This document shows positions 3,258 through 61,594 of a stretch of 64,000 bases of DNA, piece by piece. Made by a program: the position numbers and the translations under genes. Below the pieces are notes generated by a model. It saw only the letters and a program-made list of their open reading frames with translations. It made no database searches and was not told where the DNA came from. Every line of letters begins with the position of its first letter. The stretch's first letter is position 1. This DNA comes from a virus. Location of the stretch: IMG/VR virus record IMGVR_UViG_3300030617_000007, positions 1,656 through 65,655 of that record. One strand, given 5' to 3'.

Positions 3258-4350
3258 CGTAATAGTCAACACACAGCTCGCCGTTCAGAGCACTACATCC
3301 AAGGCCGACAAGCTGAAGCAGCTCAAGACGGTGGCGGCGGCACTAAACGCGCAGTTCAAAACAACCAACAGTATCGTACGGCTCAAAGACCATGTAGGTC
3401 TGCCTATGCCCTCAATTCCGACTGGCATTGCGACCTTAGACCTTGACGCCATCGGCGTCGGAGGATTCCCTCGCGGTCGCATCATCGAGCTATTCGGTCC
3501 TGAGTCAGGTGGGAAGACTACCTTAGCGTTGGAGACGGTAGCCGAGGAGCAGCGGACTGGAGCTCTGTGCGCCTATGTGGACGCAGAGCACGCGCTGGAC
3601 CCGAACTACATGGAAGCCCTGGGCGTCAACGTCGAGGAGCTGGTTATCAGTCAACCTGATAGCGGCGAGCAGGCCCTTGAGACCGTAGAGGCGCTGGTAG
3701 AATCCGGTACTGTTACCCTCATTGTAGTCGACTCCGTAGCCGCCCTGGTCCCGCAGGCCGAACTAGACGGGGATATGGGCGACTCCCACATGGGCTTGCA
3801 GGCCCGTATGATGTCCCAGGCGATGCGAAAGCTTCGTGGGAAATGCTCTCTGCACGGTGTAACTGTCATATTTATCAACCAGATAAGGGAGAAGATTGGC
3901 GTGATGTACGGTAACCCAGAGACGACGCCGGGCGGTCGCGCACTGAAGTTCTACGCATCGGTACGTATCGACGTTCGTCGTGGTCTCAGCGAGACGACTG
4001 ACGGGGCCAAGAGTCCTCTCATCAAGGTCGGTGATACAATCATCGGACACCGTATGAGGCTCAAGATCGTCAAGAACAAAGTAGGCGCACCCGCTAAAGA
4101 GACCACCGTGGACCTGATCTACGGTAAGGGTATCGACCGGCGTACTGACTTCATTACCTTCGCAAAGGACATCGGCGCAATCGAGCAGGCTGGCGCGTGG
4201 TTCAAGTTCGAGGGTGAGAACATAGGTCAGGGCTTCCTGAAGGCTATCGACGCCGTCAAGGACAACCCTGCACTTGAACAGAAGATCAGGTTCAAGGTAG
4301 CTGAGCTTCTGGCCGCACGTAGGAAGAAGGTTCAAGAGGCACTGAAATAG
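3160..4350 (+). CDS. recA: RecA recombinase
   Basis: GRIIELFGPESGGKTT Walker A, VDSVAALVP, GLQARMMSQAMRKL, FINQIREKIGVMYGNPETTPGGRALKFYASVR. Confidence 0.97.
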   Translation: MSEALAALKSAVKTPQVPSTGKSTGSTSATSTNVIVNTQLAVQSTTSKADKLKQLKTVAAALNAQFKTTNSIVRLKDHVGLPMPSIPTGIATLDLDAIGVGGFPRGRIIELFGPESGGKTTLALETVAEEQRTGALCAYVDAEHALDPNYMEALGVNVEELVISQPDSGEQALETVEALVESGTVTLIVVDSVAALVPQAELDGDMGDSHMGLQARMMSQAMRKLRGKCSLHGVTVIFINQIREKIGVMYGNPETTPGGRALKFYASVRIDVRRGLSETTDGAKSPLIKVGDTIIGHRMRLKIVKNKVGAPAKETTVDLIYGKGIDRRTDFITFAKDIGAIEQAGAWFKFEGENIGQGFLKAIDAVKDNPALEQKIRFKVAELLAARRKKVQEALK

Positions 4351-4373
4351 ATCAAAAAGGCAACAAATAAACC

Positions 4374-4402
4374 TTGACAGCCTACCGGAATAGTGGTAGG
4401 CT
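4374..4402 (+). promoter_or_regulatory. Sigma70-type promoter (leaderless)
   Basis: TTGACA-N17-TAGGCT, with ATG 6 nt downstream at 4409. Confidence 0.7.
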
Positions 4403-4408
4403 GTATTT

Positions 4409-4576
4409 ATGCCAGATGACATTCATTACCCCACAGTACCGCCGCGTAGTGAGTGGCAGGACTATCATAACTTTAGCACCTATAAGATCCGCAACATTCC
4501 TTTCCGATTCCATGGAACGCCCGAACAGGTTCACCGTCAGGCAAAGGAAACCTTATCTAAGGAGAAGAAGGCATGA
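4409..4576 (+). CDS. Small hypothetical protein (55 aa, not in ORF track)
   Basis: MPDDIHYPTVPPRSEW...EKKA*; ATGA overlap with the next gene. Confidence 0.55.
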   Translation: MPDDIHYPTVPPRSEWQDYHNFSTYKIRNIPFRFHGTPEQVHRQAKETLSKEKKA

Positions 4577-57319: not shown

Positions 57320-57690
57320 GAAGACATCTCGGACAAAACACTCGTCCGGTAACACACGTAGAAGGTTGCTTGTTATTGTCGGCGGACGCGAGGGCAGAAC
57401 TCGCCACCTCCACCATAAATTGATCTTGATTCGATTATGGGGGTGACTCAGTTTCGACGGCGGCTGATAGTGGGTACAACTTGCGTGTCGGGAATTTGTT
57501 AGCTTCGCCCGTAAAAAGAAACTCGCAAAAAGAAATGTCACGAACAATGACGAAATGGCTTCGATCCGCAACATGGTGATGTTCCCCTCGGCTTCGGCTG
57601 GGCACGACATCGACACCAAGGTGCGAGTAGCCGATCTGGTTGCAGCCTAAGCTGCTAAGGTAGTCCCTGCCTCACAGGGACACACATTGA
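57320..57690 (+). ncRNA. ssrA: Circularly permuted (two-piece) tmRNA: acceptor piece ~57320-57415, 23-nt intervening segment, coding piece from 57439 (3' end uncertain, possibly up to 57894)
   Basis: GGACGCGAG-GGCAGAA-CTCGC-CACCTCC-A-CCA precedes GGGGGTGACTCAGTTTCGAC; 7-bp acceptor stem with G3-U70; tag frame ends VAA*. Confidence 0.88.
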
Positions 57691-57929
57691 AGTCTAGACC
57701 CGCCTCCTAAAAAGAGCAATCTCCGGTGCCATCGTGCTCGGAAGTAATGGCGCACTCCATCCCTAAGCTGAGACCCAGTAAGGGCGCTGAGAAGGTGTGC
57801 GGCGGTAGTCGGGCATTTGCAGCAATGGGAACGGCTGGCCAGTTAGTTCGGGGCACCCAAGGGGCGGGTTCAGGCGGGTTTCGCCGCTCCACCAAATTGA
57901 AACAAATACGTAACAAGAATCGAGAAACT

Positions 57930-58550
57930 ATGACACCGAACATTCATTTCACCAGCGACGAACATTTCGGACATCGAAACGTAATGCTCGGCTTTCTAGA
58001 TCACAAGACCGGTCTACCAACCTCAAAGCCTCGTCCCTGGGGGACTCTCGAAGAGATGACTGAGGGAATGATCGACCGGCACAATTATGTCGTCAAGTCC
58101 GGTGACCTCGTGTACCATTTGGGAGACGCTTTTTGGAGAACTTTTGGCGTCGACAATGCAATTGAAGTCATGCAACGTCTAAACGGGAACCACTACTACA
58201 TCTTCGGCAACCATGAAGAGTTGTTTGAAGAGGCTGGGCGTTCGGTGACTCTCAAGCATCAGTTTGTGTGGTTGAAGGATCGTGCGAAGCTAAAGGTTCA
58301 GCTCGATCCTACGAAGTCCAAGAAGCAGATGATCGTGCTCGATCACTTTGCCGGGCGTGTGTGGGATAAGTCTCATAGCGGATCGTGGCAGTTATATGGC
58401 CACAGTCACGGCGCTCTACCTGAGCAGGACGACCTCCTGTCGTTCGACGTAGGAGTCGATGCAAACAACTGGTATCCGGTATCCATCGAAGAGGTGGCGC
58501 AGCGGATGTCTCTCAAGGGAAAGCCGAATCGTTTCGGCCAACACGGATAA
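57930..58550 (+). CDS. Calcineurin-like metallophosphoesterase
   Basis: FTSDEHFGH, YHLGD, GNHE, LYGHSHG, FDVGVD; real start is ATG 57930. Confidence 0.9.
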   Translation: MTPNIHFTSDEHFGHRNVMLGFLDHKTGLPTSKPRPWGTLEEMTEGMIDRHNYVVKSGDLVYHLGDAFWRTFGVDNAIEVMQRLNGNHYYIFGNHEELFEEAGRSVTLKHQFVWLKDRAKLKVQLDPTKSKKQMIVLDHFAGRVWDKSHSGSWQLYGHSHGALPEQDDLLSFDVGVDANNWYPVSIEEVAQRMSLKGKPNRFGQHG

Positions 58551-60384: not shown

Positions 60385-60539
60385 TGAACTCAGGCGGTGG
60401 CGCTAGGACTTGTACAGTGAAGTGTGCAAAATGTTTGAAACCTGTTGTCTGGAATATAGACATAGGTCAATGGGAGCACGTCGACAACGCGTCGAAGTGC
60501 AGATACAAAGGCGTGCCAATAGCAGGAGAGGCAAGATAA
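60384..60539 (+). CDS. Small Zn-ribbon-like protein (51 aa)
   Basis: CAKC; TGATG overlap, SD GGAGGA; not in ORF track. Confidence 0.5.
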   Translation: MNSGGGARTCTVKCAKCLKPVVWNIDIGQWEHVDNASKCRYKGVPIAGEAR

Positions 60540-60541
60540 GC

Positions 60542-61594
60542 ATGAGCGAGAGCGTAGTAGTCAAGATCAAATTTGGCAGTCACCTTTACGGCACGAGCAC
60601 ACCCTGGTCCGATACCGATTACAAGTCTGTGTACCTGCCATCTGCCTCCGACATCCTGCTTGGCCGGGTGAAGAAGACCATGCGTGAGGGACGTCGCGAT
60701 AAGGCCGAGGGTGAGAAGAACCTGCCTACCGACATCGACAACGAAGCCTATAGCCTAGACTACTTTTTCGAGCTGCTTGCTTCCGGTCAGACTGTGGCTA
60801 TCGACATGCTCTTCGCACCGGAACCCGAGATCACCTCGCCTACCTGGAAGATGATCCAGCGGAATCGTGACAAACTTATCACGAAGAAGGCTAGCGTGTT
60901 CCTGGGCTACTGCCGTCAGCAGGCGAACAAGTATGGGATTAAAGGGAGCCGAGTTGCGGCGGCTCGTGCGGCGGCATCGTTCTTCAAGCAGGCCTATGAG
61001 ACGTGTGGGGCAACCTTCAAAGTTGAAGGTATGTCAGATTATATCCCAGGCTTAGTCAGAATCCATCCAGATCACATGGCGATCACTCATTACGACGATC
61101 CGAAAGGCGTGCGACCGAGCGAGGTGTACTTCGAGTGCTGCAATCGGAAAGTCCCGTTCAAAGCTTCGGTCAAGTTGGCTGCTGAAATCTTCACCAAGAT
61201 ATTCGAGAACTACGGAGCGCGTGCTCTCCAGGCTGAGTCGAATGAAGGTGTAGACTGGAAGGCTCTGTCCCACGCCGTCCGCGTCGGTCACGAAGCCCTC
61301 GAACTCATGTCCACCGGCAAGGTCACGTTCCCGCTGCACAACGCGGCGCACGTCCTAGAGATCAAGCAGGGAAAACTTCCCTACGAACAGGTCTCGAAAG
61401 AGATCGAGGACTTGCTCGACACGGTGGAGGCTGCGGAAAAGATTTCTGTGCTCCGCGATGAGCCGGACTACGAATGGATTGACAGATTCGTGAAACGAGA
61501 GCATAGTTACATCGTGCGACATGCATCCTACGCCGAAATAGAGGGCAGCAACAAAGGGAAGACTGACGTAGTATTCTCTGGCCCGATCTGCTAA
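60542..61594 (+). CDS. Pol-beta superfamily nucleotidyltransferase (RlaP/Nuc-transf-like)
   Basis: FGSHLYGTSTPWSDTDY (GS-x-DxD), LGYCRQQANKY, DWKALSHAVR. Confidence 0.8.
   Translation: MSESVVVKIKFGSHLYGTSTPWSDTDYKSVYLPSASDILLGRVKKTMREGRRDKAEGEKNLPTDIDNEAYSLDYFFELLASGQTVAIDMLFAPEPEITSPTWKMIQRNRDKLITKKASVFLGYCRQQANKYGIKGSRVAAARAAASFFKQAYETCGATFKVEGMSDYIPGLVRIHPDHMAITHYDDPKGVRPSEVYFECCNRKVPFKASVKLAAEIFTKIFENYGARALQAESNEGVDWKALSHAVRVGHEALELMSTGKVTFPLHNAAHVLEIKQGKLPYEQVSKEIEDLLDTVEAAEKISVLRDEPDYEWIDRFVKREHSYIVRHASYAEIEGSNKGKTDVVFSGPIC

Follow-up and report, generated by a model that had tools for sequence, protein, structure and literature searches.

What is a short hairpin with the acceptor end of an alanine tRNA doing beside a phage tmRNA gene? 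The question is raised by a stretch of 64,000 nt (below, the window), whose source is a single-contig virus record of 85.9 kb, about 90% complete, from a soil phage. The first-pass annotation placed a G3-U70 stem followed by ACCA about 200 nt downstream of the tmRNA tag and offered three readings of it, namely, a 3' end left as a fossil by the tandem duplication from which the permutation arose, a processing signal for the tmRNA coding piece, or a separate aminoacylatable small RNA. The comparative data presented here favour the last of these, with aminoacylation as a prediction.

The Permuted tmRNA Locus

According to the Rfam search, the two-piece permuted tmRNA (RF04321) covers positions 57354–57650 of the window with a score of 67.4 bits. 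The acceptor piece, which contains the T-arm, the 3' strand of the acceptor stem, and ACCA, occupies 57354–57415 on the plus strand (end position from sequence comparison of acceptor stems). The coding piece, delimited by the RF04321 match, the tag frame, and a conserved 3' hairpin, occupies 57439–57681 on the same strand. The tag frame extends over about 57537–57650, has a putative resume codon, and encodes ~37 aa ending in LVAA. Such a tag is unusually long; similar long tags were found in the related loci L140, L141, L146, and L153. The hairpin located 3' of the tag stop codon (57663–57681, plus strand) is kept in seven phages, with or without the element described below, and distant relatives have an analogous hairpin, which suggests that it is likely the 3' end of the coding piece. 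No smpB gene was found in the phage genome; its tmRNA therefore depends on host SmpB.

ARAGORN and Rfam gave no match across 57652–57894, and the Rfam 15 covariance models detected nothing at E ≤ 1 either there or at the homologous sites of relatives. The next gene (57930–58550, plus strand) encodes a calcineurin-like phosphoesterase, whose homologues begin at the methionine at 57930. An in-frame upstream extension (57726–57929) passes through the RNA module and the hairpin described below, and databases call a 267-aa protein (P0057); real coding from 57726 was rejected, since the extension is not conserved among homologues.

Genes for an RlaP-type nucleotidyltransferase, RNA ligase, and further phosphoesterases, located at 60410–61594 of the window and in the first 1–22 kb of the genome, suggest an RNA-repair kit. 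The same genome also encodes RecA, B12-dependent ribonucleotide reductase, a tyrosine integrase-family protein, and a PEP-CTERM protein. Among the Pfam matches listed for the 90 scanned ORFs of at least 90 aa, there was no aminoacyl-transferase, synthetase, or reverse transcriptase, the RVT_3 match being RNase HI according to NCBIfam.

Structure of the Alanine-Type Hairpin

The hairpin, delineated by pattern scan and by its seven distinct variants, occupies positions 57861–57894 on the plus strand. Positions 57861–57867 pair with 57884–57890 to form a 7-bp stem (G1-C72, G2-C71, G3·U70, G4-C69, C5-G68, G6-C67, and G7-C66) that closes a 16-nt loop and is directly followed by ACCA at 57891–57894, i.e., by A73 and an encoded CCA. 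The pairing and coordinates originally given for it were exact; the term "minihelix" was not. A minihelix has a 12-bp coaxial helix with a 7-nt T-loop, whereas this 34-nt element has 7 bp and lacks a T-arm, with a distal hairpin of irregular shape in some variants only. It is therefore called a microhelix below.

The isolated 34-mer folds into the stem with a minimum free energy (MFE) of −12.9 kcal/mol (P about 0.65), a stability that is ordinary for its composition (z −0.56). It is the single hairpin of such form in the 86-kb genome, for which a matched random model expects 0.083; the chance expectation per 2.4-kb tmRNA neighbourhood is at most 0.0015. When 11 more upstream bases are included, a 45-nt three-way fold (57850–57894, −17.6 kcal/mol) with an identical G3·U70/ACCA end is favoured. 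It uses an alternative 5' strand, GGGGC at 57850–57854 (within 57850–57860, plus strand), found by folding. With 150–220 upstream bases, the predicted hairpin fold is disrupted; the G/C-rich upstream sequence often has this effect in the precursor context (the window, L153, and L001).

Conservation in Related Phages

Related loci were gathered via neighbouring proteins, the hairpin sequence not being used, and ~730 kb was scanned without bias. Six further distinct forms of the microhelix were found, in L153, L140, L141, L146, L143, and L001, which makes seven with the window; the three remaining matches of a relaxed scan were unrelated. G1-C72, G2-C71, G3·U70, A73, and CCA are present in every variant, and none has a broken stem pair. 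A6-U67 of L143 is one double-sided change, a G-C pair of L001 has become G·U (G7·U66), and one pair of L140 is missing from both strands. The stem strands are 84% and 87% identical among variants, against 29–35% for the flanks, and the U/G-rich loop ranges from 10 to 17 nt. Covariation is weak and not significant versus shuffles (88/500; seven sequences), so the case rests on conservation of the stem against divergent flanks. Since positions 1–5 are nearly constant, conservation of G3·U70 is inseparable from that of the entire stem sequence. The initial annotation had tied its idea to conservation of the G-U/ACCA hairpin, and on this check the seven variants did not refute it; the hairpin is very probably a selected RNA element.

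The carriers span 100 to 46% identity of the phosphoesterase protein. In the phosphoesterase tree, five carriers formed one clade (99/98), whereas L001/L187 stood apart (AU p 0.002), which indicates transfer or repeated loss. The phosphoesterase of L153 is identical to that of the window over the 114 residues compared. Despite this, the L153 region 255–1100 differs from the window in its tmRNA allele, which is like that of L140 and L141, and in its upstream module, and contains an additional gene for a membrane protein; RNA cassettes are thus exchanged among close relatives. The microhelix was not found in five complete genomes with permuted tmRNA, nor in the tmRNA/tRNA clusters of L150 and L225. 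Judged by this distribution, it is an accessory, dispensable element of the phage family.

As for more distant sequences, cultured phages gave no match to the microhelix, and a query with the DNA polymerase found no relatives. The pattern scan of bacterial genomes gave four chance-like matches, none of microhelix form; hits in viral contigs and bacteria were mostly chance, coding, or ordinary alpha-type tmRNA 3' ends. These data also bear on the suggestion that the hairpin is a DNA-level feature, namely, an attP core or an excision scar that corresponds to the 3'-terminal part of a tRNA-Ala or tmRNA gene of the host. The integrase-family protein encoded in the genome would fit this. However, its gene is at 2.7–3.2 kb of the genome and the hairpin at 79.7 kb, the hairpin contains no T-loop sequence, its 5' strand changes along with the 3' strand, and no bacterial match of such form exists among the four hits; an attachment site is extremely improbable.

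Two unrelated viral contigs contain alanine-type hairpins in intergenic positions that immediately precede a ribosome-binding site (L249, 657–688; L283, 5247–5280). They may be of the same kind as the microhelix or may be due to chance, and were left out of the seven variants.

Relation of the Microhelix to the tmRNA

The microhelix was always located within the tmRNA/tRNA cluster, ~1.1 kb or less from the permuted tmRNA. Measured from the tmRNA acceptor end, its position varies from 312 nt upstream (L001) to 1122 nt downstream (L143), and in some relatives it lies 0.6–1 kb downstream of the tmRNA, behind tRNAs or ORFs. A piece of RF04321 would hold a fixed position, whereas genes intervene in L143 (two tRNA genes and an ORF), L146 (a 71-aa ORF), and L001. 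In addition, the microhelix 3' strand has 2–3 mismatches with the 5' strand of the phage's own tmRNA in all seven cases, and its stem remains tRNA-Ala-like while the tmRNA acceptor stems vary. On these comparisons, the microhelix lies outside both pieces of the permuted tmRNA and is an independent unit.

Consequently, the two other readings of the first-pass annotation fared poorly. A functionless remnant of the permuting duplication, or a processing end of the coding piece, would account for the similarity of the 3' end to the tmRNA acceptor end; moreover, 3' ends detached from alpha-type tmRNAs can form a similar G·U hairpin by folding back on themselves, which makes such an origin conceivable. 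However, the microhelix has its own 5' strand in addition to the mismatches described above, is conserved amid divergent flanks, is missing from many relatives that share the permuted gene, and lies upstream of the tmRNA in L001. The coding piece, for its part, ends in its own hairpin, which is present in relatives without the microhelix, and in L143 and L146 tRNAs or ORFs separate the two. As a description of the present-day element, a fossil or a processing end appears largely refuted and is very improbable, although in the remote past the element may have arisen from a tmRNA end or from a tRNA-Ala that lost its central part.

Sequences Surrounding the Microhelix

The stretch 57690–57860 had been described as structured. 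The sub-hairpins named in it (57726–57732/57747–57753 and 57774–57784) can be formed, but its stability is not unusual (z +0.67 for 57682–57860 and −0.45 for 57690–57818), and it is counted as structured because of homology to a module in two other phages only. Positions 57690–57823 align end to end with 4980–5108 of L150 (score 72.6 versus 39.7 ± 5.2 for shuffled sequences), and a further homologue is located in L225 (about 4310–4437). The module itself (57690–57816, plus strand) is non-coding, ~127 nt long, and has its own closing stem (57692–57704 with 57801–57814) and no Rfam match. In L150 and L225, it is situated between tRNA genes without the microhelix; it is known in three copies and moves around the tRNA cluster. 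Other carriers have different sequences upstream of the microhelix. By homology, the region 57690–57894 is two things, a mobile ~127-nt module and the microhelix.

A 6S-like RNA or a switch was considered, given the 180-nt rod in the MFE structure of the window, in which 57692–57708 pairs with the hairpin 5' strand. This was rejected, since by homology the module closes with a stem of its own and relatives lack the pairing. Likewise, neither inspection by eye nor Rfam supported an HDV-like or theta ribozyme, twister, SRP, RNase P, or YrlA RNA for the module.

Between the module and the microhelix, variant alignment delimits a leader (57817–57860, plus strand) with a weakly conserved GGGAA and a G-tract. 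GGGAA ends 28–29 nt before G1 in five of the seven variants, and the G-tract ends 7–9 nt before it, so G1 is a putative 5' end. The alanine end could accordingly be the 3' tag of a longer RNA, of 45 nt from 57850 or ~68 nt from GGGAA at 57827, with the alanine or the CCA end addressing this RNA to a partner. Besides the GGGAA motif, the greater stability of the 45-nt fold in the window speaks for this, as does a distal hairpin that covaries by eye in the window, L146, L141, L143, and L001 and would yield an irregular 9–12-bp helix (in folds within about 1.5 kcal/mol of the MFE). On the other hand, the leader has no common structure, upstream identity is 35%, and the alternative 5' strand, possible in the window and (by eye) in L146, is missing in the other five variants. 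Pairing of the loop with upstream sequence is significant in the window only (p 0.01 versus 0.3–0.7 in the others), for which reason a conserved loop-upstream pseudoknot was also rejected. A longer RNA is, on balance, quite improbable.

The trailer (57895–57929, plus strand) is A/U-rich, leads into the ribosome-binding site of the next gene, and is 58% identical among variants over its first 10 nt; it resembles the sequence after tRNA and tmRNA CCA ends in the phage family. In L150, a full tRNA-Phe occupies the slot held by the hairpin in L140, L141, L146, and L153, before the same membrane-protein gene. This gene for a small hydrophobic protein (L153, 846–1079; L140, 3232–3462; L141, 521–751; L146, 4400–4687; L150, 4651–4896; and L225, 4001–4231) directly follows the microhelix or tRNA in most relatives and is missing in the window.

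Such an arrangement might reflect tRNA-style punctuation, in which the hairpin serves as a signal for RNase P cleavage and 3' trimming between an upstream non-coding RNA module and an mRNA, with alanine identity inherited and charging incidental. In all seven variants, the microhelix is located between a structured module and a ribosome-binding site, a tRNA fills its slot in L150, and RNase P cuts short hairpin substrates ending in RCCA. RNase P is, however, largely indifferent to stem sequence, whereas here the stem remains tRNA-Ala-like and the weak G·U pair is kept seven times out of seven. The upstream modules and downstream genes also vary by phage, and the window's module is found elsewhere without the hairpin. 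Punctuation as the function is unlikely.

Comparison with Known RNAs

The tRNA family (RF00005) is defined by D, anticodon, and T arms, and the microhelix, 28–35 nt long across variants, gives no ARAGORN or Rfam match to it; standard annotators miss such a gene entirely. The closest counterparts are the synthetic microhelix-Ala substrates of AlaRS (Francklyn et al. 1992, as cited in PMC11392972), which likewise consist of a loop-closed 7-bp acceptor stem with G1-C72, G2-C71, G3·U70, A73, and CCA. The first five pairs of the phage microhelix are those of the tRNA-Ala stem in PMC2175331. The synthetic molecules are laboratory constructs with a 6-nt loop, whereas the phage microhelix is genome-encoded and conserved and has a 10–17-nt U/G-rich loop. 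No natural acceptor-stem-only gene was described in the literature searched.

A second comparison concerns the TLD-only tmRNAs, which lack the coding sequence and are known from mycobacteriophage DS6A, Mallomonadaceae plastids (about 65 bp), and mitochondria (PMC4131195, PMC11915505). These RNAs, with lengths from about 65 nt upwards (PMC11915505), are likewise phage-borne or reduced, with an alanine-type end and without an anticodon or tag frame. The microhelix also has the alanine acceptor stem without a tag frame; unlike these RNAs, which keep the T-arm, the D-loop, and a short SmpB-bound helix 2, it consists of the acceptor stem only, is half as large, and is accompanied by an intact two-piece tmRNA. 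The T-arm, connector, and D-loop UUCGA of TLD-only tmRNA were not found: a T-arm is lacking, the loop is variable in its 3' part, and no tmRNA model matched at the site.

In analogy with the TLD-only tmRNA of DS6A, a molecule like which inhibits tmRNA (PMC4131195), the microhelix could modulate ribosome rescue, either by titrating SmpB or by entering stalled ribosomes as an alanyl acceptor that releases untagged chains. Its constant proximity to the permuted tmRNA (about 1.1 kb at most), the loose resemblance of its loop to the D-loop of the family's tmRNA, and the reliance of the phage tmRNA on host SmpB agree with this. Nevertheless, the T-arm and connector are absent, and proximity to tmRNA may merely reflect the RNA-gene cluster. 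SmpB needs the C and A of the D-loop, and these are not conserved in the microhelix loop. Inhibition of SmpB would also harm the phage's own tmRNA. The DS6A precedent therefore fits less well, since the SmpB-binding parts are missing and the phage tmRNA needs SmpB; a rescue modulator has a low probability.

Finally, the microhelix adjoins the RF04321 gene and has the same acceptor-end identity elements. Unlike the RF04321 pieces, it is self-paired, is outside both, and is unable to pair fully with the coding piece. Taken on paper, the element fails as a tRNA, minihelix, TLD-only tmRNA, or permuted-tmRNA piece, and would work like a microhelix.

Proposed Role

The best explanation of these data, held somewhat short of even confidence, is a natural alanine microhelix, i.e., a stand-alone tRNA-like unit that would be charged by host AlaRS and act as an acceptor-end decoy or ligand. 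The AlaRS identity set (G3·U70, G1-C72, G2-C71, A73, and encoded CCA) is complete in all seven variants. In tRNA-Ala, the main determinant of alanine identity is G3·U70, and prokaryotes conserve the first three pairs together with A73 (PMC9976931). Synthetic microhelices with G3:U70 are charged by AlaRS (PMC11392972), and a 24-nt microhelix worked with both AlaRS and FemX (PMC2175331).

The microhelix would be co-transcribed with the RNA cluster; RNase P would then generate its 5' end, and trimming back to CCA its 3' end, as for its tRNA neighbours. Such tRNA-type processing is suggested by the A/U-rich trailer, as found after neighbouring CCA ends, and by the tRNA in the same slot of L150. 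Given the full identity elements, the product could then be charged with alanine by host AlaRS; release and alanylation are, all in all, probable. Having no anticodon, D-arm, or T-loop, the molecule would not decode and would form no tRNA elbow. Its partner is probably a host protein, as no phage-encoded consumer of Ala-tRNA was found among the family matches listed.

The alanine microhelix may thus be a cheap decoy or ligand, without a nuclease-sensitive loop, for host proteins whose recognition is confined to the CCA end and the first acceptor pairs. Candidate targets are defence toxins that modify tRNA ends, and a decoy for these would protect host tRNA-Ala and the phage's alanine-charged tmRNA during infection. 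In structural models, toxSAS toxins touch CCA and the first five acceptor pairs (PMC11559606). The corresponding part of the microhelix (five pairs and ACCA) is invariant in six of the seven variants. The toxSAS studied in PMC11559606 is selective for Gly and Thr tRNAs, and further classes of tRNA-modifying toxins are listed in the same work; no toxin with tRNA-Ala specificity was identified. The coincidence of the invariant part with the toxSAS-contacted part, together with the existence of other toxin classes, gives the decoy or ligand role modest odds, and a decoy as the specific role is rather doubtful.

Microhelices have so far been laboratory constructs and models of primordial tRNA. To our knowledge, an aminoacyl-microhelix of 28–35 nt, serving as a decoy or a non-decoding carrier of alanine, would be the smallest genome-encoded RNA charged by a synthetase, a proposal that we advance tentatively. 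If true, a conserved natural gene would demonstrate that living systems exploit the recognition of a bare acceptor stem by a synthetase, and the microhelix would be a natural equivalent of the synthetic ones on which the "operational RNA code" idea is based. Selection may act on the acceptor tip by itself, with neither T-arm nor elbow; the possible partners would then be limited to proteins that recognise CCA and the first base pairs. With 34 nt and one G·U switch, it is a very simple test molecule.

Other RNA Elements of the Clusters

A conserved intergenic motif of the form hairpin-UGGUGGAGG-hairpin, with variable stems, was noted in 14 relatives, on the strand of the permuted tmRNA and 140–900 nt upstream of it (L143, 2213; L187, 3184; L189, 3561; L004, 537; L191, 1868; L184, 1574; L192, 2279; L185, 2435; L186, 379; L190, 1965; L157, 1481; L163, 3786; L179, 2054; and L160, 124). 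Its UGGUGGA segment is exactly complementary to the alanine acceptor end and is reminiscent of the T-box antiterminator bulge. The motif has no Rfam match, is absent from the tmRNA region of the window, and does not correlate with the microhelix.

In addition, L146 (4219–4268) and L153 (664–710) share a second module of ~50 nt upstream of the microhelix, with a covarying outer stem and a possible pseudoknot. A stem-loop with an A-rich tail, which may pair with the loop in an H-type pseudoknot-like manner, was found in L143 (about 3704–3758), L150 (5291–5346), L185 (3573–3617), and L173 (3254–3304), with no Rfam match. The clusters also contain tRNA-like genes with abnormal anticodon loops, marked "???" by ARAGORN, in L143 (3157–3231), L150 (3934–4010), L163 (4690–4768), L184 (5372–5443), and L185 (3198–3267).
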